Below, piece by piece: positions 1,196 to 45,320 of a stretch of 64,000 nt of DNA. Under the pieces are notes generated by a model, which was given only the letters and a program-made list of their open reading frames with translations, did no database searches and was not told the DNA's origin. Position 1 is the first letter of the stretch, and every line of letters begins with the position of its first letter. Position numbers and translations under genes: made by a program. The DNA is taken from assembly GCA_051313645.2 (NCBI GenBank), contig JBNRSN020000039.1:6386001-6450000 (forward strand). The letters are read 5' to 3'. This DNA is from Centroscyllium fabricii (lineage: Eukaryota).

Positions 1196-1563
1196 CCAGG
1201 TTATTAGGATATCCAATATCAGACATCCTAATCTGAAAGCTATTTCCCTGTCTTTGTAATTGAAGATTAAATATATAAGGAAAGAATGAAAGAAGGAACA
1301 TTTAGGAAGAGATACAAACGATAGACAGAGATAACGGGAACAAGCAGGAAATTTAAAATCCAAGAAAGAAACAAAGAAAATAAGACGTAAAGAATGCAAG
1401 TAGGAAAGACAACAAACACGTTAAGATAGAAGGAAATAAATCATTAAGGGCGTGAGTAATTAATGCAGGAAGGAATGAACAGAGGAAGAAATAAATAAAT
1501 AAAGTAGGAAAGAGATCAGGAATGAAATGAAGAAGGAAAAATAGAAAGAAAGGAATACAGCAA

Positions 1564-1730
1564 NNNNNNNNNNNNNNNNNNNNNNNNNNNNNNNNNNNNN
1601 NNNNNNNNNNNNNNNNNNNNNNNNNNNNNNNNNNNNNNNNNNNNNNNNNNNNNNNNNNNNNNNNNNNNNNNNNNNNNNNNNNNNNNNNNNNNNNNNNNNN
1701 NNNNNNNNNNNNNNNNNNNNNNNNNNNNNN
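1564..1730. other. Assembly gap (N run); others at ~4297-4458, ~14965-15392 and ~22046-22420
   Basis: N runs, all within the GA-rich microsatellite position of the unit. Confidence 0.99.
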
Positions 1731-1761
1731 GAGGGAAAGAATGAAGGAAAAAAGAAAAGCC

Positions 1762-3060
1762 AGGACTGGATTCCTCCTGTGCAACTCTAGACATTCTCCA
1801 GGCTGAAATTGTACATTGTCCTGGGACGAAATCTTTCTGTGCACCTCTACACATTCGCCAGTCAAAAATTGTGAATTGGCGTGAGCTGGAATCATCCTGT
1901 GCACGTCCACACTTTATCCAGTCTGAAATTGTACATTCGCCAAGACTGGATTACTCCTGTGCCCCTCTATACTTTTTTCAGTCTTAAATTCTACATTGCT
2001 CTTTGCTGGAATTCGCTTGTGCCCATTTCCAATTTATCCAGTCTTAAGTTGTACATTGGCGTTGGCTGTAATTCTTCTGTGCCCCTCAAAACTAGCTCCA
2101 GTCTGAAATTTGACGTTGTACTGCTGTCGAATTCTACTTTGCCCCTTTGCACGTTCACCAGCCCGTAATTGTGCATTAGTCTGGCCTGGAATCGAACTGT
2201 GCCGCTCTACACGTTCTAAACTCAAGCGTTGTATATCGGCATGGTCTGAAATACTGTAGTGCAACACTGGACTTTCTCCAGATTGATATTGCACATTTCC
2301 CTGTGCTAGAGTCATCGTATGCCTCTCGGCAATTTCTCCAGCCTGAAATTGGACATTTTACACTGATGGAATACTCCGCTTCCCCTCCACAAGTTCTCTT
2401 GCCTGAAATTGGACAATCACCTCAACTGGAATTTTCCTGTGCCCCTCCACGCATTCGCCAGGCTGAACTTGTACTTTGGCCTGGGCAGGAGTCCTGATCC
2501 CTTCTACAGTCTAAGATTGTATTTCGGCCTGGGCTGGAATCATTCTGTGCAGCTTTAAATTTTCTCCAGTCTGAATAGGTATACTGTCCTGGGCTGGAAT
2601 CATCCTGTGCAGCTCTACACTTTATCCAGCCTGAAATTGTACATTGTCCTCAGCTGGAATCCCCCTGTGCACATCTATACTTTCTTCAGTCTGAAAGTGT
2701 ACCTTGTCCTGTGCTGGATTCCTCATTTGCAGCTCTAAACTCTCTCAAGTCTGAAATTGTACATTGAACTGGATTGGAGTCCTCCGGTCCCCCTCTTTAC
2801 ATAGACAAATCTGAAGGTATGCATTGCACTCGGGTGAAAGTCAACTTTACCCCTTTCCACTTTCACATATCTGAAAGTATACATTGTCCTCGACTGGATT
2901 CGTTATGTGCCCCTGTAACAATTCTCCTGTATGAAATTGCACATTGTCTGGGCGGGAATGCTCCTGTGCCAGTCTAAAGTGTCTCCAGTCTTAAGTTGTA
3001 CATTAGCCTTGTCTGCAATCGTCATGAGCACATCGACTCTTTCTCCACTCTGGGATTACT
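1762..3060. repeat. 60-bp minisatellite block (unit 1)
   Basis: Degenerate copies of cctgggctggaatcctcctgtgcccctctacactttctccagtctgaaattgtacattg(t/g). Other blocks at ~4498-6820, 8520-9460, 22460-23745, 25680-26630, 29097-30455, 31760-32660, 38757-40655 and 44305-44510. Confidence 0.95.
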
Positions 3061-3085
3061 AACTAAACCCGGCACATGTACTCTC

Positions 3086-3131
3086 TTCATCGAAGAAAGA
3101 TCAGTGCGAGCGCAAGTCAAGCTGTCTTCAT
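3086..3131 (-). pseudogene. Leader exon copy 1, disrupted
   Basis: ATG AAG ACA GCT TGA gives a stop at codon 5; second stop at codon 15; donor mutated to gagagt. Confidence 0.6.
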
Positions 3132-4525
3132 CCTGGACCATGTTGACTGATATCTTCTGCATGGTTTATGAGCACGCACTAGTTCAGCTTTAGTAAAATT
3201 TGGCTCCACCTAATTTCTTAGCAATTAACCAATTCTGCTCAATTGCTAATAATTACTTTGCATACCGTCAGAACCTGCTCCTGACTTTTGCTCCTGGTTC
3301 TGTATATTTTTCCTCCTGATTCGTCAGGATACACCTTCCTCTCGGCTGTTGTCCACATAACCCCCTCGTCATACACCGGCATCTGAGAAGACTCCTCTAA
3401 GCATAAACATAACGTTGAATATTCCTATGTCCCCGTGACTCTGTCCACTGTGGATTCAAAGCACTCTGTGTTATTGCTGCCTAGAGCATGGATTCGAACC
3501 GTGACGACCACTCACCCATTCACACTTATTGTATTTCTTACTGTCCTGTATCCTTAACAGTCCCACTTTTCTTTTTAGTATTCCTGCCTTTTGGTTTTGA
3601 TGACATGTCTTCTCTTATGATGGCCATTACCTAAATAGCCTAGTTAATGGGATTATTCATCCTTCTGTGTTTAAAAAACGTTCATTTATCCTGCTTCCTT
3701 GTCGACCTCGGACTCCTGGGGTATTTGTATTATTCCCTTCTCTTGGTTTATTTACTTACTAAATTCTCCTGTTTGTGGTTAGGAAACTTCCTTCACTCTT
3801 CATATTACTCACCCTCGTCGATTTCATTATGGCCCCGCCCACCCCATAGGTTAATCAACAGAATCGCAGGGAAATTTCTCAAACTAGATAGAAAATTGAA
3901 CCCGCAGTGAGTGTTGCTCATTATTCTCCTATTTATCAGTAGAAATGATCCAATGCCCCCCCGTTCCCAAGTCAGATATCTTAATCCGAAAGCAATTTCC
4001 CTGTTTTTGTAAATGCGGTTTCTAGATAAGAAAAAATAAACATATGTAGAAAGAAAGAATTAAAAAAGGAATGATTGAAAGAAAGAACGTTTAGAAAGGA
4101 ATAAAAAAGAAAGACAGAAAGAAACACAACAAGCAAGAATGTAAACACACAAGAAAGAAATACATGAATTATAAAATAACGAATGAATGTAGGAAGGAAA
4201 ATAAAAATGTACAGTTAGAAGGAAAGAAAGATGTAAGGCAGTGAGCAATTAAATCAGGGAGGAAGGAATGAAGGAAGTAAGAAAGAAATAAATAAANNNN
4301 NNNNNNNNNNNNNNNNNNNNNNNNNNNNNNNNNNNNNNNNNNNNNNNNNNNNNNNNNNNNNNNNNNNNNNNNNNNNNNNNNNNNNNNNNNNNNNNNNNNN
4401 NNNNNNNNNNNNNNNNNNNNNNNNNNNNNNNNNNNNNNNNNNNNNNNNNNNNNNNNNNTAAGGCAGGAAGGGAAGAATGCAGGAAACAAGAAAGGATCGG
4501 GCTGGAATCCTCTTCTGCCCAGTTA

Positions 4526-5423: not shown

Positions 5424-6842
5424 TAGACATTCTCCAGTCTGAAATTGTACATTGTCCTGGGCTGAAATCATTATGTGCCCCTCTACACTATATCCAATCT
5501 AAAATTGTACATTGGCCTGGGCTGCAATCATCCTGTGCCTATCTACAATGTATCAAGTGTTAACTTGTACATTTGCCTAGAGTGGATTTCTCCTGTATCC
5601 CTGTACAGTTTCTCCAGACTTAAAGTGTACATTGGCCTGGGCTGTAACTCTCCCGTGCCCCTCGACACTTGATCCAGTCTGAAATTGTACGTTATCCTGT
5701 GTTCGAATCGTTCTGCGCCCCTTTCCACTTTCTCCAGTCAGTGATTGTGCATTACCCTGTGCAGAAATCGTCATGTACCTCACTGCGCTTTCTGCTGGCC
5801 AGCATTGTATATTGGCATGGTCTGCAATCGTGTAGTACAACACAGGACTTTCTCCAGGCTGAAATTGTACATGTGCCTGCGCTAGAATTATCTTATACCT
5901 CCCCGTGATTTCTCCGGTCTGAAATTGTACATTTTACAGTGATGGAAGTCTCCACTGCCCATCAAAATTAGCTCTTGCCTGCAATCGGACGTTGCGCTGC
6001 GTTAGCATCTTCCTGTGCCCCCCTGCACTTCCGCCAGGTTGAAATTGTACTTTGGACTGGGCTGGAGTCCTCCGAAGCAATTCTGCACTTTTCTCCAGTC
6101 TGAAATTGTACATTGCCTTGGGCTCGAATCCTCCCGTGTAGCTCTACACTTTCTCCAGTCTCAAATTGCACCTTGTCCCGGGCTGGACTCTCCTGTGCAG
6201 CTGTACAGTTGCTCGAGTCTGAAGTTGTAGATTGGCCTGGGCTGGAGTCCGCTTGAACATATCTACAGTTGCTCCAGTCTAAAAGTGAACATTGTCCCGG
6301 CCTGGAATCCTGTGCAGCTCTACAGTTTTTCCCGTCTGATATTGTACATTGGCCTGGTCTTGATTCGTACTATCACCCACTTTACATACTGCAGCCTGGC
6401 GTTATGCATGGCCCTCAGCTGGAATTCCCCTTTAATCCTATAAAATGTCACATATCTGCCAGTATACATTGTCCTCGGCTGCATTCGTCATGTGCCCCTC
6501 TAATAGTTCTCCTGTATGAAATTGCACATTGGCTTGGGCGTGAAGCCTCCTGTACAGTTTGTCCAGACTGAAATTGTAAATTGTCCTGGGCTGTGATCTG
6601 CATGTGCCCCTCTACGTTTTTGCAGATTGAAATTCTACATTTGCCTCGACTTCAAAAGTCCTATACCCCTCTAAACATACTGCCATCAGAAATTTTTCAT
6701 TTCCCTGGGCTGGCATCCTCCTGTGCCGTTCTACAATATCTCCAGTCTGAAACTGTTCATTGGCCTAGGCTACAATCCCCCAGTGCCACTCTACTCTTTC
6801 AACAGTCTGTGATTATGAACCAACATCGGCGCTTGTAATCAC

Positions 6843-6888
6843 GGCATGGAAGACAGATCAGAGCGAGCGCATGTAAAGCTGTCTTCAT
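6843..6888 (-). CDS. Putative signal-peptide first exon, copy 2 (MKTALHALALICLPC, phase 1), apparently intact
   Basis: 46 nt from ATG to a gtgatt donor; hydrophobic leader; HNF1-like site at 6974-6986 and TGTTTAC at 7016-7022 upstream. Confidence 0.55.
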
Positions 6889-7113
6889 CCTGGACTCTGT
6901 TGAATAAGATCCTCTGCATGGTTTCCGTGCACGCACTACTTCAGCTTCACATATATTTGGTTTCAACTAATTTGTTAATCATTAAACAATTCCGCTCAAC
7001 TGCTAATCAATATTTTGTTTACCGTCAGAACCAGCCCTTGACTTTGATCCTGGTTCAGTTTAATTTTCCATCTGATTCGTCAGTTTCCTCCTTCCTCTCG
7101 GCTATTGTCCATC

Positions 7114-7339
7114 TGTGGTAAACCACTAATCTGCCTGTACAGAACATGTCTGGGCATGCTTAAACTGGCACCGCCGCTGGCTACACTCCTAAGCCCCGGT
7201 ATAAAGGTGATTTACCTCCAGTCCCCTGGCTTTAATGATCGGTCTACCAGCAGAGGCATGATCGTTTTCTTCTGTTAATAAAAGCCTACTTGTTAAAAGT
7301 TTATCTCTTTGACTTTTTGGAGTTTTTGATGGCACATCA
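7114..7339 (+). mobile_element. Solo LTR with 5-bp TSD CCATC
   Basis: TG...CA ends, internal ggtataaagg and aataaa, ccatc at 7109-7113 and 7340-7344; absent from all other units except the one at 24036. Confidence 0.8.
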
Positions 7340-9484
7340 CCATCTAAACATTTTTTTTTGATTCCTGAATCAGAGAAAAATCCTCTAAGCAGAATCTACA
7401 ACGTTGATTATTCCTATGTCCCCGTGACTCTGTCCTGTGTGCAACCATAAAACTCTGTGTTTGGGCTTCCTGGAGCATAGATACGTGCTGTAACTACCAC
7501 TCCCCCCTCCACGCTGCTTGTAGCTCGTACTGTCCCTTATAGTTAATATTCACCCTTTCCGTTTTAGTAGTCTCGCATTTTGGTTTTGCTGCCATATCTT
7601 CCCTTATAATGGTGATTCCCTCGCTATCCTGGTTACTGAGATTAATGATCCTTCTGTGTTTAAACACATTTCCTTTCTCCTGCGTCCGTGTAGATCTCGG
7701 ACTCTTCGGATATTTGTATTATTCCCAAATCTTGGTTTCTTGTTATTACTCAATTCTCCTGTCTGTGGTTATGAAACATCCTTCACTCTTCGTCGCTTTC
7801 TTTATGACCCCCCCCCCCCCCCACTCCCCGCCGCACCCCGTATATTTTACACAGAATCACAGGAAAATTCTCAAACGAGAAAGAAGATGAACCCATGGAG
7901 AAAGTTGCTCAGCATTCTCCTCTGTATCAGTGGAACTGATCCCCTGTGCCCCCCGTTCCCATATCTGATAACAAAATCAAAAGCTGTTGCCCTGTCTTTG
8001 TAAAAAGAGATTTGTATATGAGAAGGATAACATATAAAGAATGAATGAGTGAAAAAAGGAACGGATGAAAGAAAGAACATTTAGAAAGGAATAAAAAAGA
8101 AAGACAGAAAGAAAGCGAACAAGCAAGATAGTGAACATGCAAGAAAGAAACAAAGAAAATATGGAATAAAGAAAGAAAGTAGGATGAAAATAAAGAAAAA
8201 AGTAAGGAAAGAAAGAAATAAGGCAATGACGAATTAATGCAGGAAAGAAGGAACGAAGGAAGAAGGCAAGGCAGAAAGAAAGTAGGAAAGAGTGAATTAA
8301 AGGAAGGAAGAAAGAAATAAAGAAAAAAAGAACGAGGGAAAGAAATCAGGCAGGAAGTACGGAATGAATGAAAAACGAGGAGCTAAAAAAAGACAGAAAG
8401 TAAGTAAAAACATTGAGAAAGATCGAAGGAAAGAAATTATGAAAGTTAGATTTAAAAAGAAAGAAAGAACGAAAGAATGAAACTAACGCCGGAAGGAACG
8501 AATGAAGAAAAAAGGAAAGGACAGGCCTGGTGTCCTCCAGTGGTATTCGGAAGATACTCCAGTCTGGAATTGTATTTTGACCTGGGCTGGAATCCTCCTG
8601 TGCGACTCTAAACATTCTCCAGTCTGAAATTATACATTGACCTGGGCTAGACTTCTCCTGTGGCCCTCAACATATTCTCCAGCCTGATATTGTACGTGGG
8701 ACTGTGGGGAATTACTCTTGAGTCACTCTGGACTTGCTCCAGACAGACATTGTGCATTTACCTGTGCTGGAATCATGCTGTGCCACTCTGGAATTCCTCT
8801 AGCCAGAAATTGCACATTTTCTGGTGACGGTAGCCTCCGCTGCCCCTCTATACATTCTCTTGCCTGAAATTGTACATTGTCCTGTGCTGGATTCCTGCTT
8901 AACCCCTCTGCGCATTCTCCAGTCCGAAATTGTACTTTGTTCTGGGCTGGAATACTCGTATGCACCTCTACACGTTCGCCAGTCTGAATTTGTACAGTGC
9001 CACCGTATGGTGTCCTACTTTGCCCCTCTGTACTCACTGCAGTCTGAATTTATCAAGTGTCGTCGCTGGAAATTCTCCGTTACCACATTAAACATTCTCA
9101 GATCTGAAAACGTACATTCTCCTCGGATGGATTCGTCAGACTCCCCTTTAATAATTCTCCTGTGTGATATTTTAAATTGGCAAGGGCTGGAGTCCTGATG
9201 TGCCGCTCTACAGTTTCTCCAGTCTCAAGTGTACCTTGGCGTGGCCTGGATTTCTCCTGTGCTCCTCTACCCTTTTTCATACTGACATTCTATATTGGCC
9301 TAATCTGAAATCCTGCCATGCCCCTCTAAAACTTCTCCATTGTGAAATTCCCCATTGGCCTGGGCTACCGCTCTATACAGTCTCCTGTCTGCAATTTTCC
9401 ATTGGCCTTGTCTGTAATCTTCCTGTGCCCCTCTACTCTTTCTCCAGTCTGGGATTATGAACCAGCCCCGTCGATTGTACTCAC

Positions 9485-9530
9485 TGCATCGAAGGCAGAT
9501 CAGAGCGAGCGCAAGTAGAGCTGCCTTCAT
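9485..9530 (-). CDS. Putative signal-peptide first exon, copy 3 (MKAALLALALICLRC, phase 1), intact
   Basis: caggATG context, 46 nt, consensus donor A|gtgagt, Lys n-region plus Leu/Ala h-region. Confidence 0.65.
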
Positions 9531-9584
9531 CCTGGACCAGTTGAATGATATATTCTGCAATGTTTCTGTGCGTGCAGTAGCTCA

Positions 9585-9695
9585 GCTTTATTAATATTTG
9601 GCTGCATGGTATTTGTTAATCATTAAACAATTCCGCTCAATTGCTAATCATTAATTTGTTTACCGTCATTACTGACCTTGACTTTTACTCCTGGT
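9585..9695 (-). promoter_or_regulatory. Endoderm/liver-type proximal promoter: AT-rich TATA-like box, HNF1 site, FoxA site, DR1 HNF4-like site
   Basis: gttaatcattaaa at 9615-9627, tgtttac at 9657-9663, tgacttttactcc near 9680; spacing to the ATG is conserved across copies. Confidence 0.6.
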
Positions 9696-10819
9696 TCTGT
9701 TTAGTTTTCCTTCTGTTTCGTAAGCGTAGTCTTTCCACTCGGCTATTGTCCCGCTAACCCCCTTTTCATACTCTGGTATCTGAGAAGACTCCTCTACGTT
9801 AAACGTACAATGTTGAATATTCCTATGTCCCATTGACTCTGTTCAGTTATGAATCGTATCCCTCGGTGTTACTGCAGCCCAGAGCATGTATTCGTACCGT
9901 GACCACCACTCACCCGCAATCCTGATTGTAGCTCTTACTCTCCTGTATTTTAAACATTCCCCATACTACAGCCTTTTGTTTTTGCTGAGATCTTTTCCCT
10001 AGTAGTGGCCATTCCCTCGCTATCCTGGTCCCTGGGATTATTCATGCTTCTGTTTTTAAACACATTTCCTTCCTCCTGCTTCCGTGTCGACCTCGGCCTC
10101 CTGGGTTCTTCGTATTATTACCTTTTCTCCATTTTTTCTGATGACTCAATTATCCTCTCTGTGGTTATTGAAATTCCTTCATTCTTCTTATTACTCAATC
10201 TCGTCCTAATCATTATGTCGCCACCCACCCCGAACGTTTTTACACAAAATCACAGGGAAATTACACATGCATGTCCTCTCTATCAGTGGAGCTGATCCCA
10301 TGTGCTCCCCCGTTCCCATATCAGATATCCTAAACAGAAAGCTATTTCCTTTTTTTTGTAAAAGCTGTTTGTATATAAGAAGCAAAAAAATATAAAGAAA
10401 GAATGAATGAAATGGCGTTTAGAAAGTAATAACAACGAAATACAGAAAGAAAGAGAACAAGAAAGAAAGTAAAAATGCAAGAAAAGAAACAAAGAAAATA
10501 AGAAATAACGAACGAAAGTAAAAGAAAGAAAGATAAATGTAAAGAATGCAAGAATGAAAGAAGTAAGGAAGTGAGGAATTATTACAGGAAGGAAGGAACG
10601 AAAGAAGAAAGAAAGGAAGAAAGATAGAAAGTAGTAAAGAGAGAAGGAAGGAAACGAAGGTAGAAAAAAAGAACGAGAGAATGAGAGAAATAAATAAATA
10701 AATAATGACCGAAAGAACGAAGGAAGGAAGAATGTGAGTAAGATCGAAGGAAAGAAAGAAAGTAAGAAAACGAAAGAAATACGTAATGCAGGAAGGAAAT
10801 AATGAAGGAAATAGGAAAG

Positions 10820-13645
10820 GACCGTGCTGGAGTCCTTCTTTGCAGCTCTATACATTCTCCAGTATGAAATTAGACATTGTCCTGAGCTATAATCCTCCTG
10901 TACCCCTCTGCCCTTTTTCCAGTCTGAAATAGTACATTCTCCTGGGCTGACATCCTCTTGTGTCCCTCGACACATTCTCCTGCCGCAAATTATTCATGCT
11001 CCTGGGCTGCAAACTTCCCGTGTCCGTATACACCTTTTCCAGTCTGAAATTCTACATTTGCCTGAGCTGGACTTCTCTTTTCCACCTCTGCACATTCTCC
11101 AGTCAGAAATTGTGCATTGTTCGGGACTGGAATCGTCCTGTGCCGCTGTAGACTTTCTCCAGTCTGGAATTGATCATAATCCAGTAGGCCCATCTACAAA
11201 TTGCCGAGTATGAAATTATATATTGGCCTCAGCTGGAATCCTCATCGGCCCCTTTACATTTTCTCCCATCTTAAATTGTAGATGTTCTCTCCTGGGACAC
11301 TCCTGTGCCCATCGACAATTTATCCAGCCTCAACTTGTCCATTGACTTGTGCTGGAATTATCCTGCGCCCCTCTTAATTTGCTGCAGTCCGAAATTGTAC
11401 GTTGTCCTCGGCTGGAATCCTCCTGTACCCCTTTACATTTTCTCCTGTCTTACTTGTAAATTGGCCTCGGCTAGAATTTCCTGTGCACCTCTACATTTTC
11501 GCAATTCCGAAATTGTACAATGGCCTGGGCTGGCATCCTCTTGTGTCACTCTAGATTTTGTCCATAATGAAGTTGTACATTGGACTGAGCAACAATGTAC
11601 TATGCCGCTCTAAACTTTCCCCAGCCTGACACTGTATATTGGCCGGTGCTGCAATTCACCCGAGCACATCTACAATATCTCCAATCTAAAATTGTGCACT
11701 GGCCTGGGCTGGAATCATCCTGTATCCCGCTAAATTGTCTCCAGTCTCAAATTGTACCGTGGCCTGAGCTGGAATACTCCTACGTCCCTCAGAAACTTCT
11801 CCCATCCGTAATTGTGCATTCGCCTGGGCTGGAAACCTCCTGTGCCCCATTTCAATTCCTCCATTCTCAAATTGTTTAATGGCCTGGGAGATAAACCTGT
11901 TCTGTGACTCTGGATTTGCTAAAGACTGAAATTGCACATTGTTCTCTGCTGGAAACAATTTGATATTTGCTGGTATTTTATCCAGTTCGAAATTGAACAT
12001 TTTCCGGTGTTGGAATATGCCCCTGTCCCTCTATACTTTCTGCAGTCTGAAATTATACATTGGTCTGGGATGGTATACTCCTGTAAACCTCGGCCCTTCC
12101 ACCAGTCTGAATTTGTAATTTGGTATGTGCTGGAGTCCTCCTGTGCACCTCTAAACTTACTGCAGTCTGAAATTTACATTGCCCTAGACTGTAATGCTCC
12201 ATTTCACTCTACATTTTCTCCAGTCTGAAATTGTACATTGGCCTGTACGAAAATCGTCCTCTGCCCCTCTGCACTTTTTCCAGTATGAAATTGTACATTG
12301 TCCTGTACTTTAATCGTCCTGTGTCCCTCTGCACTTTTTCCAGTATGAAATTGTACATTGTCCTGTACAATATACGTCCTGTGCCCCTTTGCACTTTCTC
12401 CAGTCTGAAATTGTACATTGGCCTGGGCTGGAATTCTCCTGTGCTACTCTGAACCATCGCCAGGCTGAAATTGTACATTGGCCTGTGCTGAAATCCTCCT
12501 GAGCCCCTTTGTACTTTCTCCAGTTTGAAATGGTATATTTGCTTGGCCTAGAATTCTCTTGTGCCACTCTGTACTTTCTCCACTTTGAAATTGTATATTT
12601 GCTTGGCCTAGATATCTCTTGTGCCACTCTGGATTTTCGCGAGACTGAAATTATATTTTTTCCCCGGCTGGCAAACTCCTGTGCTGCTCAAAACATTGTC
12701 CAGTCTGAAATTGTACATTGGCCTGTTCTGGAATTCTCCTTTGGCACTTAAATTGTTCTCCAGTCTGAAATTGTACATCGGCCAGTGCTGTAATAATCCC
12801 GTGCGCCTCTACACTATCTCCAGTCTAAAGTTGTGCATTGCCTGAGCTGGATTCATACTGTTCAACTTTACATTTTCTGCAGTCTCAAATTGTACATTTG
12901 CCTGGGCTGGAATCCTCCTGCGTTAATCTGAACCTTCTCCCATTTGTAATTGTTCATTAGCCTGGGCTGGAATCCTCCTGTGCCCCACTTCAATGTCTCC
13001 ATTATTAAATTGTATAATGGCCTGTGATGGAATACTCTTCTGCCACTCTGTTTTTTCTAAAGACTGACATTGCTCATTGTCCTGTGCTGGAGCAATCTTG
13101 TGACTTTCTAGAATGTATCCAGACTTAAATTGTACATTTTCCGGTGATGGAATTCTCCGCTGCCCCCCTATAATTTCTACAGTCTGAAATTGTATATTGG
13201 TCTGTCCTGGAATCCTCCTGGACGTCACTAAACTATCACCATTGACTGTGCTGCAGGCATCCTGAGCCCCTCTCTACTTTCTCCACTCTAAAAGTGTATA
13301 CTGGCTTTGGCTAAAATTCTCTTGTACCACTCTGGACTTTCTCCAGACTAAAATTTGACATTTTCCTTTGAAGGAGTCGTCCGCTGACCCTCTGTACCTT
13401 CTCTTTCCTCAGGTTGTATAATTTCCTGGTCTGGAAACCTCCTTGACACCTCTGCACTTGCTCCAGTTCTAAATTATACACTTTCCAGAGCTGGAATACT
13501 CATGTGTCCATCTAAACAGTCTCCAGCTTCAAATTGTAAGTTGGCCTGGGCTGGAGCACTCCTGAGCCCCTCTACACTTACTGCAGTCTGAACATGTACA
13601 TAGGCCTAGGCTGAAATAATCCTATGCCTGTCGACCCTATCTCCA
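10820..13645. repeat. Expanded 60-bp minisatellite block (unit 4; leader and promoter deleted)
   Basis: Exact 60-nt register visible at 12241-12480; the block joins directly to the mid-unique-segment sequence ttttgctgacatc at ~13650. Confidence 0.9.
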
Positions 13646-13810
13646 TTTTTTTTGCTGACATCTCCTCCGTTATAATGGCCATTCTCTCGCTATCCTGGTT
13701 AATGTAGTTATTCAACCTTCCGTGTTTCATCACATTTCCTGCCTCCTGCTTCCAGGTAATCTTCGGCCTCCTGGAATCTTCATATTACTCATTTTTCTTA
13801 GTTTCTTGTT

Positions 13811-17340: not shown

Positions 17341-17367
17341 TTGACCAACCCCGGCGCTTGTACTCAC

Positions 17368-30610: not shown

Positions 30611-30623
30611 GTTAATCATTAAC
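30611..30623. promoter_or_regulatory. Perfect HNF1 palindrome GTTAATCATTAAC
   Basis: Matches GTTAATNATTAAC; 86 nt from the leader ATG at 30525. Confidence 0.6.
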
Positions 30624-35665: not shown

Positions 35666-36067
35666 ACATAGAAATATAGAAACTAGGAGCAGGAGGAGGC
35701 CATTCGGCCCTTCGAGCCTGCTCCGCCATTTAATGAGATCATGGCTGATCATCCAAATCCAGCATCCCTCCCCTGCCCCCTCCCCACATCCCTCGGTCCC
35801 CACCGAACCTGCATCAACACATATCCCAGCCTATCCCCGTAAACCCACATATTCAATCCCCCTAACACTAAGGGTCAATTTATCCTGGCCAATCAACCTA
35901 ACCCGCACATCTTTGCCTGTGGGAGGAAAACGGAGCACCCGGAGGAAACCCACGCAGACACGGGGAGAATGTGCAAACTCCACACAGATAGTACCCGAGG
36001 CTGGATTTGAACCCGGGTCTCCAGTGCTGTGAGGCAACAATGCTAACCACTGTGCCACCGTGCCGCC
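35666..36067 (-). mobile_element. HE1/V-SINE-type tRNA-derived SINE with CR1-like tail
   Basis: Head ggcacggtggcacagtggttagc (A box), ggttcaaatcc (B box), V-domain tgtgtggagtttgcacattctccccgtgtctgcgtgggtttcctccgg, CR1 3' end. Confidence 0.9.
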
Positions 36068-36805
36068 ACATCAGTACACCATTCCTGCTTTCTCGCCATA
36101 TCCCTTGATCCCCTAGTTGTAAGTATTACATCTAACTCCCTTTTGAATATATTTAGTGAACTGGCCTCAACAACTTTCTGTGGTAGAGAATTCCACAGGT
36201 TCACCACTCTCTGGGTGAAGAAGTTTCTCCTCATCTCGGTCCTAAATGGCTTACCCCTTATCCTTAGACTGTCCCCCCTGGTTCTGGACTTCCCCAACAA
36301 TTGGAACATGCTGCCCGCATCTAACCTGTCTAAACCCGTCAGTATTTTAAACGTTTCTATGAGATCCCCCCTCATTCTTCTGAACTCCAGAGAGTACAAG
36401 TTCAGTTGATCCAGTCTTTCTTGATATGTCAGTCCGGCCATCCCGGGAATCAATCTAGTAAACCTTCGCTGCACTCCCTCAATAGCAAGAATGTCCTTCC
36501 TCAAGTTAGGAGACCAAAACTGCACACAATACTCCAAGTGTGGCCTCACCAAGGCCCTGTACAACTGTAGCAACACCTCCATACTCCTGTACTCAAATCC
36601 CCTCGCCATGAAGGCCAACATGCCATTTGCTTTCTTGATTGCCTGCTGTACCTACATTTCCACCTTCAGTGACATGTACCATGACGCCCAGGTCTCGTTG
36701 CACCTCCCCTTTCCCTAATCTGTCACCATTCAGCTAATAGACTGTCTCTCTATTTTTACCGCCAAAGTGGATAACCTCACATTTATCCACATTGTACGTC
36801 ATCTG
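36068..36805 (-). mobile_element. CR1 LINE 3' fragment
   Basis: 192-aa ORF LYRALVRPHLEYCVQFWSP..FFTQRVVNLWNSLP; a further CR1 tail lies at 35568-35665. Confidence 0.92.
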
Positions 36806-37695
36806 ATTCGTCATGATTCGTCAGCTTACTCCTACCTCTCGGCTATTGTCCATCTAAAGTCCTTCTCACACTCCGGGATCTGAGAATAATCCTTTATGGG
36901 TAACGCACAACGTTGAATATTCCTATGTACCCGTGGCTCTGTCCAGTTTGGAATCATAACATGCCTTGTTAGAGCTGCCTAGAGCTTGGATTCGTACCGT
37001 GAAGACCACTCCCCCTCCACCCTGCTTGTAGCTTTTACTCTCATTTATTCTTAACATTCCCCGTTTTCTTTTTAATATTCCTGCCTTGTGGTTTTGCTGA
37101 CTTGTCTTCACTCATACTGTCCATTCCCTCACTATCCTGGTAACTGGGATTATTCTTCCTTTCTGTGTTTCAACACATGCCCTTTCTCGTGCTTACGTGT
37201 AGATCTCGGGATCCTGGGTCCTTCGTATTATTACTTTATCTTGGTTTCTTGCTGTTACTCATTTCTCCTGTCTGTGTCTATAAAACTTCCTTCATTCTTC
37301 TTATTGCTCACCCGCATCTTTTTCAATTTGGCCCCTACCCAATCCGTAGGTTTTTACACAGAATCACACGGAAATTACAATGAAGGCGCATGGAGCGGGC
37401 TGTGGTAGGCCCCTGGCCTCAGACCCGATGTTTGAAACTTAGACTTGAAATTACACAAAGGGGAAAGACAATTCAATGCACAGTGAGAGGTGCTCATTAT
37501 TCTCCCGTCTATCAATAGAACTGATGCCAAGCCCCCCACCCCCGTTCCCATATATATTCTCCTGGTCAGAAATCTCATCCCTCTTTTTGTAGAAGCTGTT
37601 TGGATATAAGAAAGAAAAGGTATAAAGAAAGATTATAAGAAAGAGCATAAAAAGAATAAAACCGAAAGACGGAAAGAAAGAGAACAAGCAATAAT

Positions 37696-38390
37696 GGGCC
37701 AGAATTTCCTGTGCTCCAGAGGAGCTGCACACTCACGAAGGGGGGTCCGAAATGCCCCGTGGGTGTGCAGCACGGTGGATGCCCACGAACGGGAATTTCC
37801 TGTGCTGAAGCTGCAGATAACTCTGTAGGTTTCAGCCTTGAGAAACTGCGAGCCCAGCACAGACTGTTTAATATTCAGCCTCACAAGGCTTCGACAGGAG
37901 ACTTCCCAACATAGATGTGGTAATTTTGTCCCGGACCCGACGCTGAACTTCATTAGTGCAAGAATTGCCTGGGAATATCGGCTGCAAGATGAGAGCCCCG
38001 ATTTGCCGACCCACACTCGCCACTAGTGAGGGTTCATACCAGGAGCAGAGCCTTGCTAAATTACTCCTGGAATTATCAAGCAAAGCACAATCACAGAAAG
38101 TACACAGCAATTTTATTTAATAAATGTATTGCAGCTTTTTCAGCTTCGGAGCCTTTCGTTCTGTGCGTTCTGTGGGGGCGTGTTCACAGAAATCAGACAT
38201 CAGTGGGCGGGGCTTGGTGATAGCCCACGCAGCAAGCTCTACGCAGCAAGACAGGCTACATCGCTACGCAACCCATGAAGCTGCCAAATCGGACAGGAAT
38301 TTTTCGGAAAACAAAGAATTACGTGCGCGTGCGTCACGGGTGTGCATGAGCACGCACCCGCACGAAACGGAGCACAGGAAATTCTGGCCC
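37696..38390. mobile_element. PIF/Harbinger-like MITE
   Basis: Perfect 22-bp TIRs gggccagaatttcctgtgctcc / ggagcacaggaaattctggccc; 3-bp TSD AAT; no coding capacity. Confidence 0.85.
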
Positions 38391-39775
38391 AATGTAAAGT
38401 TGCTAAAAGTAAAGAACGAGCATAAGAAATAAATAAAGAAAGCAGGAAGCAACGAAAGAATAAAGCAAAGAAAGACAAAAAGAAGGAAAGAAATAACTAA
38501 GGCGGTGAGAAATTAGTGCACGAAGGAAGGAAAGAAGGGTGACATAAAGGAAGAATGAAAGAAAGTAGGAAAGCGAGAAGCGAGGAAATGAAGAAAGAAA
38601 GGAAGAAAGACAGAAAGAACGACTGAAAGAACGAAATCAGGCAGGAAGTAAGGAACGAATGAAGAAATAAATAAAGACCAAGGTAAAGAAGGAAATACAT
38701 TTTAAGAAACGAATTAAGTAAGGCAGGAAGGAAAGAATGAAAGAAACAAGAAAGGACCGGACTGTAGTCATTCTGTGCAGCTCTACACTATCTCCAGTCT
38801 ATAATTGTACACTGGCCTGGGCCAGAATCATCTTCTGCCCGTCTACACTTTATCTTGTCTGAAATTGTTCAGTGACTTGGGCTCGAAAACTCTTGTGGCC
38901 ACCAGCATTTTATCCAGTCAAAATTGTACATTGTACAGGGCTGAAATCATCCTGCGCCCCTCTAAAAAATCGTCATTGTAAAAAAGTATATTGGCCTGTG
39001 CTGAATTCCTCTTGTGACACTCTGGAATTGTTTCAGCCTGAAATTGTCCATTTACCGGTGACTGGATCCTCTGCTGCCCCTCTATGCATTCTCTTGACTG
39101 AAATTGTATATTGGCCTATGCTGAAATTTTCCTTTATCGCTCTGCACCGTCTCCAGCCTGAAATCGTACATCGCCCTGGTCTGGAATACACCTGTACAGC
39201 TCTACACTTTCTCCACCATGAAATTGGAACTTGGCCTGGGCTGGAATTCTTCTGAGCACCTCTGCACATATCACAGTCCGAAATTGTACATTGGCCTGGG
39301 CTGAAATTTTCATATGCCCATCTCCCTATCTCCAGTCTAAAATTGTACATTTTCCTGGGCTAGATTCCTCCTGTGCACATCTAAATTAATCCAGTCTGAC
39401 ATTGTACAATGGCACGGCCTGGAGTTCGCCTACCCCCCCTCTATTCTCACAGCAGTCTGTAGTTATGCATTCGCTCGGCTGACATAATCCTGTACCCCGC
39501 TACACTTCCTCATATGTTCAATTGCACATGGGCCTCGGCTGGATACGTCATCAGCCCCTGTAAAATGTCTCCTGTCTGAAATTATACATTGGCCTGGGCT
39601 CCATTACTCCTGTGACCCTCTTCAGGTTCTCCAGCCTGAAATTGTGCTTTGGCCTGCGCAAGATTCCTCCTGTGCCCCGCTACAGTTAATCAATTCTAAA
39701 ATTGTTGATTGGCCACGACTGGATGACTCCTAAGCCACTCTAAATGTTCTCCATTCTGAAATTTGACATTGGGCA

Positions 39776-40126
39776 ATGAAACACAGAAGATAGGAGCAGG
39801 AGTAGGCCATTCGGCCCTTCGAGCCTGCTCCGACATTCAATGAGATCATGGCTGATCATCCAAACTTAGCACCCCCCTCCTATCATATCCCCTGACACAC
39901 CCCAATTCTATGAACTATCATATATCCCACCCTATCCCCGTAACCCCCAGATATTCAATCACCCTAACACTAAGGGTCAATTTATCCTGGCCAATCAACC
40001 TAATCCGCACATCTTTAGACTATGGGAGGAAACCCAAGCAGACACGGGGAGAATGTGCAAACTCCACACAGATAGTACCCGAGGCTGGATTTGAACCCGG
40101 GTCTCTAACACTGTGCCACCGTGCCG
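39776..40126 (-). mobile_element. HE1/V-SINE
   Basis: Same family as 35666-36067, with small internal deletions. Confidence 0.88.
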
Positions 40127-40219
40127 GCCAATGCTGGAATCATGCTCAGTCTTTCAAAACTTTATCCAGACTGAAATTGTTCATTGGCTTTGGCTGGGCT
40201 CTTCCAGTGCCCCTCTACT

Positions 40220-40626
40220 GGACGGTGGCATAGTGGTTAGCACTGTTGCCTCACAGCACTGGAGACCCGGGTTCAAATCCAGCCTCGGGTACTATCTGTG
40301 TGGAGTTTGCACATTCTCCCCGTGTCTGCCTGGTTTTCCTCCGGGTGCTCCGGTTTCCTCCCACAGTCCAAAGATGTGTGGGTTAGGTTGATTGGCCAGG
40401 ATAAATTGACCTTTAGTTTTAGGGGGATTTAATATGTGGGTTTACGGGGATAAGGTGTGATATGTGTCGGTGCAGGCTCGATAGGGATCGAGGGATATGG
40501 GGACAAGGCCGGGACAGGGTGCTGGGTTTGGATGATCAGCTATGATCTCATTGAATGGCGGAGCAGGCTCGAAGGGCCGAATGGCCTACTCCTGCTCCTA
40601 TCTTCTATTTTTCTATGTTTCTATGT
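40220..40626 (+). mobile_element. HE1/V-SINE
   Basis: ggtggcatagtggttagc..ggttcaaatcc..V domain..CR1 tail ending in (tttctatg)n. Confidence 0.9.
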
Positions 40627-40677
40627 TACTCTTTCTCCAGTCTGGGATTGTGAACCAGCCCCGTAGGTTGTACTCCT

Positions 40678-40723
40678 TCCATCGAAGACAGATCAGAGTG
40701 AGCGCAAGTAATGCTGGCTTCAT
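40678..40723 (-). pseudogene. Leader exon copy 10 (MKPALLALTLICLRW), splice donor lost
   Basis: Open leader but the donor reads aggagt; perfect HNF1 at 40809-40821 and TGTTTAC at 40851-40857. Confidence 0.55.
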
Positions 40724-41007
40724 TCTGGATCCTGTTGAATGATATCCCCTGCATGGTTGATGTGCGTGCATTGAATCAGGTTTAGTAATATTTTGCTGCA
40801 CATAATTTGTTAATCATTAACCAATTCTGCTCTATTGATAATTATTTGTTTGTTTACCGTCAGAACGTTCCCTTGACTTCTGCTCCTGAATCTGTTTATT
40901 TTTCCTCGTGATTCATCAGGTTACTTGTTCCTCTTGGCTGTTGTCCATCTAACCCCCATCTCATACTCCGGTATCTCAGAAGAGTAAGCAGAACATGCAA
41001 CGTTGAA

Positions 41008-43030
41008 TCAACCCTGGTTTACAGAAGCATGCAGGAACGCATGTGTGGAACAGCACCAGGCAAACCGAAAAAGGAGATGTCAACCTGGTGAGGCAACAAC
41101 ACAGAACTACGTACATGCCAAACAACAGAAGCAACATGCGATAGACAGAGCTAAGCGATCTCACAACCATCGGATCAAATCAAAGCTCTGCCATGCTGCC
41201 ACGTCCAGTCATTAGTTGTGGTGGACAATGAAACAGTCGGCAGCAGGAGGAGGCTCCAAAACTTGTCCCCAACCTCAATTATGTTGCAGCCCAGCACGTG
41301 AGTGCAAAAGACAAGGCTGAAGCTGTTGCACCTATCTTCCGACAGAAATGCCGTGTCGATGATTCATCTCGGCCTTCAGCTGAGGTACCCAGCATCACAG
41401 ATGCCAGTCTTCAGCCCACTCAATTTACGTTAAGTGATGTTAAGAAACGGCACAAGACACTGGATACTGCAAACGCTATGGGCCCTGAAAACTTTCCGGC
41501 ATTAGAAGTGAAGACTTGCGCTCCAGAACTAACTGTGCCCCTACCCAAGCTGTTACAATACAGCTACAATGCCGGCATCTAGCCGGCAATGTGGAAAATT
41601 GCCCAATATATCCTGTCAGCAAAAAGTAGGACACATCCGACCAGACCAATTACCGTCATATCAGACTACTCTCAATCATTAACAAAGGGATGGAATTTGT
41701 TTTCGAAAATGTTATCAAGTGTCACTTACTCAGCAATAATCTGCTAACTGACGCCCAGTTTGGTTTCCGCCAGGGCCACTAAGATCCTGACCTCATTACA
41801 GCCTTGGGCCAAACATGGACAAAAAAGCTGACGTCAAGAGCTGAGGTGAGAGCGACTCCCCTTGACATCAAGGCAGCATTTGATCGAGTGTGGTATCATG
41901 GAGACTTAGCAATGCTAAAGTCAATGGTAATCAAGGGGAAAACTCTCTATTGGTTGGAATCTTACCTACCAAAAAGGATGTTGGCTGTGATTGTTGGAGG
42001 TCATTCATCTTTACCCCAGGATATCACTGCAGGAGTTTTTCAAGGCAGTGTCATAGGCCCAACCAACTTCAGCTGTTTCATCAATGGCTGTCCCTCCATC
42101 ATAAGATCAGAAGTGGGGATTTTCGCTACAGATTTCACACGGTTCAGCACCATTCGAGACTCGTCAGATACTGACGCATTCCATTTCCATATGCAGCAAG
42201 ACCTGGACAGCATCCAGACTTGGGCTAACCATTGGCAAGTAACATTCCCACCACACAAGTACGAGGCAATGTCCATCTCCAACAAGCGAGATTCTTACTC
42301 TCTCCCCTTGCCATTCAATGGCATTCTCATCGCTGAAACCCCCACTATCAACAGCTTGGCGGTTAGCATTGATTAGTACCTGAACTGCACCAGCCATATA
42401 AACACTATGGCTAAAAGAGCAGGCCAGACCCTGGGAATTCTGCCGCCAATATCTAACCTCCTGATTCCCCGAAGCCTTTCCACCATCTACAAGGCACAAG
42501 TCAGGAGTGTGATGGAATAGTCTCCACTTGCCTATATGAGAGCATCATCAACAACACTCAAGAAGTTCGACACCATTCAGGATAAAGCAGCCCGCTTGAT
42601 TGGTACTCCATCCACCACCTTCAACATTTACTCCCTCCAACACCGGCGCACTGTGGCTGCAGTGTGTATCATCTACAATATGCACTTGAGCCACTCGCCA
42701 ATGCTGCTCCAGAAGAAACTTCCAAAGCCGCTACCTCTACCACTTAGAAGGACAAGGGCAGCAGACGCATAGAACAGCACCACCTACAAGTTCACCTCCA
42801 AGTCACACACCATCCTGACTTGGAACTGTATCGCCACTCCTTCACTTTCGCTGGGCGAAAAACCTGGAACTCCATTCCAGCAAGATTGTGCATGTAGCTA
42901 CACCATATGGATTGCAGCGGTCTAATAAGGCGGCTCACCACCATCTTCGCAAGGGCAATTAGGGATGGGCACTATATGCAAACCTAGCCTACCAGCGACG
43001 CCCACATCCAATCAAGGGATAAAATAAACT
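41008..43030 (+). mobile_element. Degraded CR1/L2-group LINE of a second lineage, RT and 3' end
   Basis: QPWFTEAC, DIKAAFDRVW, ITAGVFQGSVIGP, TTLKKFDTIQDKAARLIG; many stops; inserted into the gttgaatattcc motif of the unit. Confidence 0.8.
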
Positions 43031-44230
43031 AATATTCTATGGGACCGTGACTCTGTCCAGTTTGGAATCATATCAATCTGTGTTAATGCTGCCCAGAAGA
43101 TGGATTCGCACCGTGATGTCCACTCCCCCTCCACCCTGCTTGTAGCTCTTACTTCCCTGTATTCGTAGCATGCCCCCTTTTCGTTTTAGTATTCCTGTCT
43201 TTGGGTTTGCTGACATCTCTTCCCCTGTAATGGCCAATCCCTAGATATCCTGTTTACTGGAATTGTTCATCCTTCTGTCATACAACACATTCCCTTCATC
43301 CTGCTTCCAAGTGTACGTCGGCCTTCTGTGATCTCAGTATTATTCATTTATCTTGGTTTCTTGATATTTCTCAATTATCTTGTCTGTAGTTATAAAACAT
43401 CCTTAATTCTTCTTGTTACTCACCCACGTCGTCTTCATTATGAACCACACACACACCGTAGTTTATTACACAGAATCAAAAGGAAAATACTCAAACGAGA
43501 AATAGAATTTAACCCACCGTGAGAACTGCTCATTATCTCACCCCCCCCACCACTATCAGTGGAACTGATCCCATGTGCCCCCATGTTCATATATCACGTA
43601 TAATATTCAGGAAGCTATTTCCTTTTTTGCAAAACAGCTTTGTATATAAGAAAGATAAAACTATAAAGGAAGAATGAATGAAATAAGGACTGAATGAAGC
43701 AATGATCATTAAGAACGGAATAAAAACGAAACACAGAAAGAAGGAGAGCAAGCATGAAGGAAATAATAGAAAATTCAAAGAAAGGAAGATGATTAGATAG
43801 AAATAAAACAGGAAGTAAGGAATTAATGAAGAAAGAAATAAAGAAAGAAATAAAGAAAGAAAGAAATAAATAAAGAAATAAAGAACGAAAGAAAGAGAGA
43901 AAAAAAGAAATGAAGAAGAATGAAAGTAAGAAAGATGGAAAGAAATATGGAAAGAAAGAAAGAATGACTGAAAGAAAGAAAGAGAGAAAGAAAGAAAGAA
44001 AAAAATGCAGCTTAGGTGAATTGGAGATGCTGAAATTGCCCAGGACTATTTGCGTGATATATATTTCTTAGATTTGTGTGTTTCTGGGTATATAGGGAGA
44101 GGGTAGCAGGGGGTTGCTGAGTTTGGATGATCAGCCATGATCTCATCAAAATGGCTGAGCAAGCTCGAAGGGCCAAATGGCCTACGCCTGCTTCTAACTT
44201 CTGTGTTTTTGTGTTTTTGTGTTTTTGTGA

Positions 44231-44262
<32 letters not shown>

Positions 44263-44509
44263 ACGAACTAAGCAGGAAGGAAAGAATGAAGAAAACAAGA
44301 AAGGACAGGACTGGAGTCCTCCACAGCCATCTACACTTTATCCAGTCTTCAATTGGCTGTTGGCCCGAACTGCCTTACTCCTGTGCCAATTTACACTTTA
44401 AAGAATCCATAACTGTGCATCAGACTGGGCTGGAATTGTCCTGGGCCACTCTATATTTTACCAATCTGAAATTGTATATTGGCCAGGGCTGGCATCCTCT
44501 TGTGCCAGG

Positions 44510-45320
44510 TCAGAAGATTGGCAGATTAACGTGAGTATATGCGAGATAATCCACTTTGGCGACAGAAACAGATAGGCAGACTATTAACTGAATGGAAATA
44601 TATTGGATGACGTGGAAGTGCAAAGTGACCTGGGTCTGTCTGTGCAGCATTCGGTGAAGGTAAGTATGCAGGTGCAGCATGCGATGAAGAAGGCAAATGG
44701 TATGTTTGCCTTCATAGCGGAAGATTTTGAGTACAAGAACAAGGATGTCCTGCTGAAGATGTACAGGGCCTTGTTGAGACCACAGCTTGAGTACTGTGTG
44801 TACCTTTGGTCGCCTTATCTGAGGAAGGATGTTCTTGCCATGGAGGGAGTTCAGATAAGTTTCACAAGGCTGATACCTGGGATGGCAGGAATGTCGTATG
44901 AGGAGAGATTCGATTTATTTGGCTTAAATCGATGGAGTTTAAAAGAATGTTGTGGATCTCACCGAAACGTATACAATTCTGACACCTCTGGACAGCTAGA
45001 TGCAGGAAGAATGTTCCCGGTGATCATAGAGCCCGGAACCTGGGGGCACAGTCTAAGGATATGTGGTAGGCCATTCAGGACAGTGGTGTGGAAGAATGTA
45101 TTCATCCAGAGAGCTCTGAACCTGTGGAAATCTCTACCACAGAATATGTTCATTAAATATATTCAATAAGGAGTTAGATATATAACTTAGATCTCAAGTT
45201 AGCAAGGGATATGAAGAGAAGGCAGGTACGGGGTACTGCGTTTGGATGATCAGGTAGGATCTCATCGAGTGATGGAGCAGACTTGAGGGAACGAATGGCC
45301 TCCTCCTGCTATTTTCTTCA
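44510..45320 (+). mobile_element. CR1 LINE 3' fragment terminating the array (another CR1 tail at ~44080-44230)
   Basis: KKANGMFAFI..LRPQLEYCV.LWSPYLRKD..RALNLWKSLP. Confidence 0.88.

Follow-up and report, generated by a model that had tools for sequence, protein, structure and literature searches.

Tandem copies of a promoter and signal-peptide exon precede a single exon 2/exon 3 pair of a probable Ly6/three-finger gene in Centroscyllium fabricii

The 64,000-nucleotide stretch of Centroscyllium fabricii DNA analysed here (the window) contains an array that is best read, with a probability of about 0.65 as judged from the sequence, as an old tandem amplification of a promoter and signal-peptide exon in front of one pair of exons 2 and 3. 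Transcription of the gene likely starts in a single surviving copy upstream, most probably that with its start codon at 9530, and the transcript is likely spliced over dead copies to encode a predicted secreted precursor of 95 residues. Annotation can readily overlook a gene of this kind, because its predicted leader lies about 29 kb away among dead copies.

Results

Layout of the array

Eleven promoter-bearing units, about as many as the sequence-only reading had proposed, were mapped head to tail on the minus strand of the window. They are accompanied by a twelfth minisatellite remnant (44330–44530, minus strand), which stems either from a further lost unit or from the original upstream duplication seed. 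The array continues to about −18085; negative genomic coordinates are positions on contig C922 minus 6,386,000, and thus lie left of the window. The whole locus exists in three copies (A, B and C) on the same contig, 430–510 kb apart.

Each unit consists of a pyrimidine tract, a promoter-like stretch of about 0.9 kb, a 46-nt leader exon and a 60-bp minisatellite, and the succession of minisatellite and tract after each leader is as originally described. The leader is kept in 8 of the 11 units, with the 46-nt minus-strand segment at all of the proposed start positions (3131, 6888, 9530, 17413, 23810, 26701, 30525 and 40723). The leader-plus-donor sequence first given for it, however, is a consensus that is matched by 9530 alone. 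An HMM of the core promoter and leader recovered eight full copies and one leaderless piece at the window locus. The copies are 73–87% identical to each other, so that their resemblance is not due to chance.

All units and leaders described below are on the minus strand. U0, which adjoins exon 2, is split by a LINE insertion (1–1211, minus strand). Its pyrimidine tract and promoter start are at 1212–1758, and the remainder is at −5900 to −18085, where the distal promoter (−5900 to −6282, outside the window) is fused directly to the minisatellite, the core promoter and leader being deleted. U1 (1759–4460) consists of a minisatellite (1759–3052), a dead leader with two stops and a lost donor (3086–3131), and an uninterrupted promoter (3132–4052). 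U2 (5424–8530) has an insertion in its promoter; its leader (6843–6888) is open and followed by GT in the window copy, but the donor is weak and there are changes involving His and Pro. In U3 (8557–10800), the leader (9485–9530) is intact with a canonical donor, and the promoter (9531–10400) is uninterrupted. U4 (10826–15410) carries the same deletion as U0. U5 (15411–22460) has a 3.1-kb retroelement in the distal promoter, and its leader (17368–17413), with four non-synonymous changes, is open and followed by GT in all three locus copies. The leader of U6 (22463–25690) contains a stop (23765–23810), that of U7 (25693–29099) has a stop and has lost its ATG in the window copy (26656–26701), and that of U8 (29100–31762) has a stop and a lost donor (30480–30525). 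U9 (31763–38758) has many insertions, a promoter in fragments (35404–35568, 36807–37376 and 37447–37630) and no leader. U10 (38759–44330) has an open leader without donor (40678–40723) and a 2-kb insertion in its promoter.

Of the 11 listed junctions between minisatellite and pyrimidine tract, 10 have an identical sequence and the one at 5424 is broken by an insertion; one breakpoint is common to the units. A block of four units was duplicated, yielding the sister pairs U0/U4, U1/U5, U2/U6 and U3/U7. The deletion of core promoter and leader is the same in U0 and U4 and is found in all three locus copies; these two sisters differ at 34 of 223 positions.

No trace of exon 2 or exon 3 was found within the array at a word size of 7, and no unit has an exon 2 of its own. 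The pyrimidine tract was therefore rejected as the acceptor of a unit-specific exon 2; rather than a splice acceptor, it forms the far-upstream flank of the promoter that follows. A dispersed transposon was also rejected, since all genome matches of two unique unit pieces (34/34 and 35/35) are confined to the three locus copies and one paralogous locus.

Shared exons 2 and 3

Shared exons had been expected to the left of the window, and a phase-1 acceptor exon was found there (−19298 to −19420, minus strand; 123 nt, phase 1-1, AG/GT, five Cys). Exon 3 (from −20092, minus strand) has 38 codons with five Cys and ends with CCxxDxCN, five residues and a stop, AATAAA following 120 nt further. Both exons are present once, 19–20 kb from the window and in phase with the leader, in agreement with the proposal that amplification had been confined to the 5′ end of a gene for a secreted protein. 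At the DNA level the plan comprises three exons: the 46-nt phase-1 leader, the 123-nt phase 1-1 exon 2, and exon 3 with the stop.

In copies A, B and C, exons 2 and 3 encode the 10-cysteine pattern (5 + 5) of a Ly6/uPAR three-finger domain with its CCxxDxCN end. One account of the family defines the LU motif as a pattern of 8–10 cysteines ending in CCxxxxCN (PMC8904931). There is no GPI tail, as the stop falls five residues past CN in A, B and C. A hydrophobic tail is present in the control, an ordinary GPI-type Ly6 gene on contig C1488 with the same leader/phase-1/exon-2 layout and an intron of about 0.5 kb. Taken alone, exon 2 scored 21.1 bits against PF00021 (UPAR_LY6; E 4.5e-4), under the curated cut-off of 24.8, and exon 3 matched PF21947 with E 0.13; the scores stay below the cut-offs because two exons share the domain. 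When the genome was searched with PF00021, three weak matches were returned, none at the window locus, which shows that domains divided between exons escape the family search.

Atlas leads include the SLURP1 and PATE clusters, with scores under 0.9, and a search of solved structures returned weak matches only. Orthologue searches with exon 2 alone and with a four-row exon-2 alignment gave no match among longer proteins, which is weak evidence. A candidate paralogue on contig C557 proved not to be an LU gene. The paralogous locus, on contig C1045, has four copies of exon 2 and one exon 3, and no leader was found in 230 kb. From these sequence features, the parent gene is likely a fast-evolving Ly6/three-finger gene whose product is predicted to be secreted. 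Ly6/uPAR was among the secreted families suggested initially.

Divergence of the locus copies

Among A, B and C, non-coding DNA differs by 0.6–2.3% whereas the mature-protein exons differ by 7–20%, almost all changes being non-synonymous. The differences amount to 17/234 coding versus 14/2170 non-coding positions between A and B, and 37/228 versus 49/2158 between B and C. The pN/pS values are 0.215/0.029 for B–C (p=0.0017) and 0.25/0.079 for A–C (p=0.0066); that of A–B alone is not significant (p=0.26). The proteins differ at 14–32 of 77–78 residues (14/78 for A versus B), and all 10 Cys are kept. This pattern indicates strong positive selection on the mature-protein exons.

Gene conversion that brought in divergent exons is not a favoured explanation, as synonymous divergence between B and C (0.029) is close to that of the intron (0.023). 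Nor are two alleles or an assembly duplicate, since sequencing run X4 contains all three exon-3 types, on separate contigs. The four sequencing runs used come from a single study, and the animal behind the assembly may be among them; the intron is present in them as well as the exons, and they behave like DNA. The proximal deletion predates the A–B split (0.65% non-coding divergence) by far, yet A and B diverged with frame, cysteines and splice signals kept, which argues that selection acted long after the deletion. The deletion of the proximal exon 1, the triplication and the positive selection on the coding exons are additions to the sequence-only reading.

The candidate working exon 1

As U0 lacks its core promoter and leader and U1 is dead, an upstream duplicate must serve as exon 1. 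U3 is the sole unit that combines an uninterrupted promoter with an intact leader. A TATA-like box is present in its promoter, as are HNF1-like sites that score 12/13 and 11/13. Over a stretch of 121 nt, the unit does not differ between the three locus copies. Its leader differs from the column majority by two synonymous changes and one conservative change, and no differing letter is listed in 4/4 DNA runs. A sign of constraint on 9530 did not reach significance across the nine copies examined (p=0.61). A scan for leaders (ATG, hydrophobic stretch, phase-1 GT) from exon 2 to +114 kb yielded six candidates: three array leaders, one in the LINE insertion at −891, and two beyond 70 kb. On these sequence grounds 9530 is likely the best candidate for the working exon 1; 17413, which is no less intact in the three locus copies, could also be used. 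The intron inferred for 9530, of 28.8 kb, contains 10 AATAAA hexamers and other promoter copies. An out-of-frame ATG is present at −31 in seven of the eight leader-bearing units and missing in 9530; it is too close to the likely start site to be given weight.

Discussion

Origin of the array

The array is presumed to have begun with one partial duplication that brought the intron-1 minisatellite up against the upstream pyrimidine tract, and to have been expanded by unequal crossing-over. Spare copies would have made the proximal exon 1 dispensable; upon its loss, its role would have passed to an upstream copy, the remaining leaders decaying about neutrally. The locus would be a natural and dated example of the way in which tandem arrays of promoters plus first exons originate, combining a single breakpoint, the duplication of blocks, the disappearance of the native exon 1 and the persistence of the gene by way of a spare copy. 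The three recent locus copies serve as replicates.

Possible regulatory roles of the array

The best match to a 13-mer that we take to be an HNF1-like motif lies at −97/−98 in all eight leader-bearing units, in line with the fixed distance to transcription-factor motifs noted beforehand. HNF1 is linked to liver, kidney and gut, and the promoter would point to expression in these tissues. On a more speculative reading, judged rather unlikely, the array would be a working regulatory device: exon-1 amplification would have assembled its HNF1-type promoters into a homotypic battery, two or three of the leaders would be in use, and the dead units would be enhancers that tune the tissue and dose of a three-finger protein engaged in an arms race. 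It would then be a variable-first-exon locus that varies regulation alone, exon-1 duty passing from copy to copy.

An enhancer-dosage array, in which the HNF1-like sites of the dead-leader units sum to drive high expression from the one working exon 1 and these units are retained for that reason, is considered unlikely. The proximal site scores 12–13/13 in four of the five dead-leader units of the window (13/13 in U8 and U10), and its A/T core underwent two change events in 10 columns, below all 91 AT-rich comparison windows. This core has changed less than expected under neutral decay, both sites together giving p=0.046 in a tree-aware test that was post hoc. That the proximal site is kept slightly better than its flanks leaves room for a dosage effect, and dose may matter where coding exons are strongly selected and the locus is triplicated. 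However, no excess conservation was found over all motif columns (p=0.34) or on dead branches alone (p=0.27). Moreover, the core promoter or leader is gone from three units, insertions interrupt the promoter in five of eight units, and copy C has lost about a unit and a half.

A regulated bank in the style of UGT1 or protocadherin, with two or three of 9530, 17413 and 6888 used tissue-specifically with a common exon 2, is quite improbable. The layout matches that of variable-first-exon clusters, each of the three locus copies has 9530 and 17413 intact, and the shorter branch leads to the intact member in two of three sister pairs. ATG, open frame and GT are nevertheless all present only in these three of the eight leaders, the other five carrying a stop or lacking ATG or GT, and three further units have no leader. 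The three intact leaders compare with 3.7–4.2 expected under neutral decay, and pooled leaders show no purifying selection (pN 0.118 versus pS 0.074), both at low power; between B and C each unit has just 1–8 changes in 252 positions, too few to judge constraint. Survival at the neutral expectation argues against a maintained UGT1-like bank, and the working set of alternative first exons proposed earlier was not borne out. In copy C, furthermore, 6888 has lost its GT and the promoter of 17413 is cut to about 0.4 kb. The repeated exon has 15 signal-peptide codons only; the leaders differ in a peptide that would be cleaved and cannot diversify the mature protein in the manner of UGT1 or protocadherin variable exons, since it would be the same from every leader.

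It is very improbable that the gene is dead, with selection on its coding exons a thing of the past, or that a first exon unrelated to the array supplies exon 2: the leader nearest to exon 2 has been deleted, the next one is dead and the paralogous locus on C1045 has decayed likewise, but selection on the coding exons long outlasted the proximal deletion, as A and B show. An ordinary cluster of whole genes with decayed exons 2 and 3, or single-exon genes reading into a coding 20-residue repeat, can largely be dismissed: the 60-bp period is a multiple of three and the leader frame can run into the repeat, but the array has a common junction and no exon 2/3 trace, read-through meets a stop after 29–82 codons, and the 217 minisatellite monomers have no codon-position pattern (variation 0.22/0.22/0.18) and contain 0.4–0.6 stops per monomer in each minus-strand frame.

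Comparison with known systems

No description of the locus or its layout was found in the main texts searched, mostly outside subscription journals. Secreted Ly6/uPAR genes of the SLURP1 and PATE type are described as having three exons, with the signal peptide in exon 1, the LU domain in exons 2–3 and no GPI tail (PMC4839075). The locus gene has this exon plan, with 10 Cys and no GPI tail, but its exon 1 belongs to an 11-unit array and its intron 1 would span 26–37 kb.

In snake three-finger toxins and salamander plethodontid modulating factor (PMF), exons 2–3 are reported to diverge while introns or UTRs remain alike and cysteines are kept (PMC2474615, PMC8904931). The predicted fold family, the exon plan, divergent coding exons and conserved cysteines are the same at the locus; in contrast, the locus amplified its leader unit in tandem, and its whole-locus copies are 430–510 kb apart. 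Similarity to these proteins is at the motif level only (E 0.015 or worse). An assignment to the snake toxins was not adopted, as the toxin matches are confined to a weak C-terminal motif whose best E (0.036) is nearly equalled by uPAR (0.051). A likely secreted three-finger protein has been uncovered whose divergence follows the pattern of snake toxins and salamander pheromones. It would bind a fast-changing partner, for example a pathogen protein or a receptor, which is worth finding. Salmonid DRTP1, a small secreted fish protein of the stress and acute-phase response and a putative LU member, is a further point of comparison. Its induction by stress is described in PMC11467335.

The UGT1, GCNT2 and protocadherin clusters are described as having tandem promoter and first-exon units, some of them dead or relics, before constant exons (PMC1885805), and the locus likewise has tandem promoter and exon-1 units before shared constant exons. 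In those systems each variable exon encodes a large functional domain and is under positive selection, whereas the repeated exon of the locus encodes a signal peptide only; most of its copies are dead, and selection falls on the shared exons.

Layout of the array and state of the leaders

Mapping of the promoter, leader, minisatellite and tract pieces delineates 11 promoter-bearing units, numbered U0 to U10 from the end nearest to exon 2, and a last minisatellite remnant beyond U10 (44330-44530). On the minus strand, the unit order is a pyrimidine tract, about 0.9 kb of promoter-like DNA, a 46-nt signal-peptide exon (the leader) and a 60-bp minisatellite, which is non-coding. Pairwise identity among the units is 73-87%. 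The eight leaders described in the sequence-only reading were all recovered in place, with start positions 3131, 6888, 9530, 17413, 23810, 26701, 30525 and 40723 (U1, U2, U3, U5, U6, U7, U8 and U10); U0, U4 and U9 carry none. The ATG, open frame and GT are all retained in only three of the eight, at 6888, 9530 and 17413. The leaders at 3131, 23810, 26701, 30525 and 40723 are broken by loss of ATG, frame or GT. In all eight leader units, the top match to the HNF1 consensus is found at −97/−98 (score 10-13 of 13). The U5 promoter contains a 3.1-kb non-LTR retroelement-like insert (18493-21624, minus strand) with long frames of 354 and 701 codons.

Two unique pieces of the array had 34 and 35 matches in the 7.2-Gb genome, every one of them within three copies of the locus on the same contig (C922) or one paralogous locus on contig C1045, which rules out a dispersed transposon. 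To judge by its repeats and a GPCR fragment near the window, the animal is probably a cartilaginous fish.

The parent gene

The parent gene was sought over 150 kb to the left and 50 kb to the right of the window; negative coordinates are C922 positions minus 6,386,000, that is, left of the window. The minisatellite extends leftwards, interrupted by insertions, as far as -18085. Exon 2 lies 1.2 kb past this end, at -19298..-19420 (123 nt, phase 1-1, with AG and GT), and the last exon, exon 3, starts 671 nt beyond it, at -20092, with 38 codons and a stop followed 120 nt later by AATAAA. The shared exons predicted to the left of the window are thus present, in single copy. No trace of exon 2 or 3 was found inside the array, which bears out the proposal that leader-bearing units were amplified without downstream exons and leads us to reject a cluster of whole genes.

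A phase-1 leader would join exon 2 in frame. The predicted precursor is 95 residues long, with a hydrophobic leader. Small residues occupy positions −3 and −1 of the likely cleavage site (read by eye), and there are ten cysteines; the chain closes with CCxxDxCN plus five residues, without a GPI tail. On its own, exon 2 matches Pfam UPAR_LY6 with an E-value of 4.5e-4, under the cut-off. Atlas leads belong to the Ly6/uPAR three-finger family, with scores under 0.9, and matches to solved structures are weak, at the motif level, and common to uPAR and snake toxins. Like the array gene, Ly6/uPAR genes typically have three exons, the first of which encodes the signal peptide (PMC4839075). The cysteine pattern, exon plan and absent GPI tail are those of the secreted Ly6/uPAR group, and the parent gene is likely of this type, with a putative three-finger fold. 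A distant paralogue on contig C1488 (C1488:187,692,100-187,696,509) served as control for layout and leader scan. It is an ordinary three-exon Ly6-type gene with one phase-1 leader about 0.5 kb before exon 2 and a GPI-type tail.

Selection on the coding exons

The locus copies lie on C922 at 5.86 Mb (A), in the window (B) and at 6.80 Mb (C), each with its own array, one exon 2 and one exon 3. A and B are colinear and about 99.4% identical over the 90 kb compared. Coding against non-coding differences amount to 17/234 and 14/2170 for A-B, 46/228 and 48/2158 for A-C, and 37/228 and 49/2158 for B-C (p<1e-9 each). The pN/pS values are 0.215/0.029 for B-C (p=0.0017), 0.25/0.079 for A-C (p=0.0066) and 0.086/0.028 for A-B (p=0.26), with 28/77, 32/77 and 14/78 residue differences, respectively. 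All cysteines and splice signals are retained in the three copies. Judged by this pattern of change, the parent gene is alive. With pS this low, import of the exons from a distant paralogue is disfavoured. Fast exons and slow introns are likewise reported for three-finger toxin genes of snakes and for PMF of salamanders (PMC2474615, PMC8904931); the likeness does not imply toxicity.

In public DNA runs (one study, perhaps of the assembled animal), the exon-3 types are on separate contigs, all three being present in run X4. In three of runs X1-X4, word depth is higher for the C-type contig than for the B-type (e.g. 14.7 vs 2.7 in X4), which may reflect additional C-type copies or variation in copy number, contig depth being a poor measure.

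History of the array

One sequence is common to 10 of the 11 minisatellite-to-tract junctions printed, from which we infer that the array was founded by one partial duplication and later grown by unequal crossing-over. A tree of 9 rows yields the sister pairs 3131/17413, 6888/23810 and 9530/26701; in a tree of 14 rows, U0 pairs with U4 and the 6888/23810 pair is not resolved. These pairings indicate the doubling of a block of four units. In both U0 and U4, and in all three locus copies, the same deletion removed the core promoter and leader and fused the distal promoter directly to the minisatellite. U0, which adjoins exon 2, has thus lacked an exon 1 from a time before the block was doubled, and its neighbour U1 (3131) is dead in A, B and C. 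Because the coding exons were still under selection long after this loss, exon 2 must have been served by a leader farther upstream.

The copy C array differs (C922:6,834,600-6,851,600): it has lost the distal 17413-type promoter and the 23810-type unit through a deletion, and it contains a doubled block of two units, with a leader type that B has not retained. The array is still changing.

The leader likely to serve exon 2

Between exon 2 and +114 kb, a scan for ATG, hydrophobic stretch and phase-1 donor picked out six segments. Three are the intact leaders of the array, one lies within a LINE insertion at -891, and the other two are over 70 kb away. A comparable scan recovered the leader of the C1488 control gene. 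The three intact array leaders would give an intron 1 of 26.1, 28.8 or 36.7 kb. Promoters are uninterrupted only at 3131, 9530 and 30525, so that 9530 alone combines an uninterrupted promoter with an intact leader. This unit carries two HNF1-like sites and a canonical donor, departs from the column majority by two synonymous and one conservative change, and is identical in A, B and C over 121 nt; across four DNA runs, its leader shows no differing letter. This cleanness is only suggestive of use, as so clean a copy among nine has p=0.61. The 17413 leader is also intact in all three copies, and 6888 has lost its GT in copy C. With a probability of roughly 65%, we favour a mostly decayed promoter-plus-leader array in which one distal copy provides exon 1 for a three-finger gene that is under positive selection and likely encodes a secreted protein; of several redundant first exons, one would have taken over the exon-1 role.

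Alternative explanations

Selection for enhancer dosage, suggested earlier, is unlikely, although, against the reading favoured here, fewer changes fall on A/T columns within the two HNF1-like sites than on A/T columns elsewhere (uncorrected p=0.019; p=0.046 with sister changes counted once). The difference fades when only dead branches are counted (p=0.27) or over all motif columns (p=0.34).

Slightly less probable still is a regulated bank of alternative first exons. The layout resembles the UGT1 and protocadherin clusters, which also contain dead and relic exons (PMC1885805), and 17413 persists beside 9530 in all locus copies. The array locus nevertheless departs from what defines those clusters, since its repeated exon codes for the signal peptide only and selection falls on the shared exons. 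When point changes are simulated neutrally at 10-12% divergence, 46-53% of leaders stay intact, or 3.7-4.2 of 8 against 3 observed; for the leaders pooled, pN (0.118) does not fall below pS (0.074). These low-powered comparisons thus give no sign that the leaders are maintained as a set. The sequence-only reading is therefore supported as to the amplified 5' end of a secreted-protein gene, but not as to a working bank. A dead gene is very improbable, and any other explanation even more so. No published description of the locus or layout was found in the literature searched, which mostly excluded subscription journals.

The paralogous locus and surroundings

The decayed C1045 locus (C1045:1,366,900-1,497,000) has four exon-2 copies with promoter scraps and one exon 3; three exon-2 copies lack the third cysteine and the nearest is cut short. 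No leader was found there in 230 kb, nor the 60-bp minisatellite. It shows an independent and different partial amplification. Partial tandem duplication is thus a recurrent event in this gene family, one that can leave a dead locus behind, and this speaks for instability rather than design.

C922 is rich in tandem duplications and satellites. Several tandem blocks of 2-6 kb (88-94% identical), with a glutamine/glutamate-rich repeat frame, lie 122-149 kb left of the window. GC-rich gypsy-like retroelement pieces at 49000-52100 (plus strand), with a related copy at -11638..-9794, are flanked by a 2.7-kb direct duplication (45271-47928 and 52043-54647, 91%). Just right of the window, a 229-codon plus-strand frame may be a fragment of a rhodopsin-type GPCR, of a family expanded in sharks.
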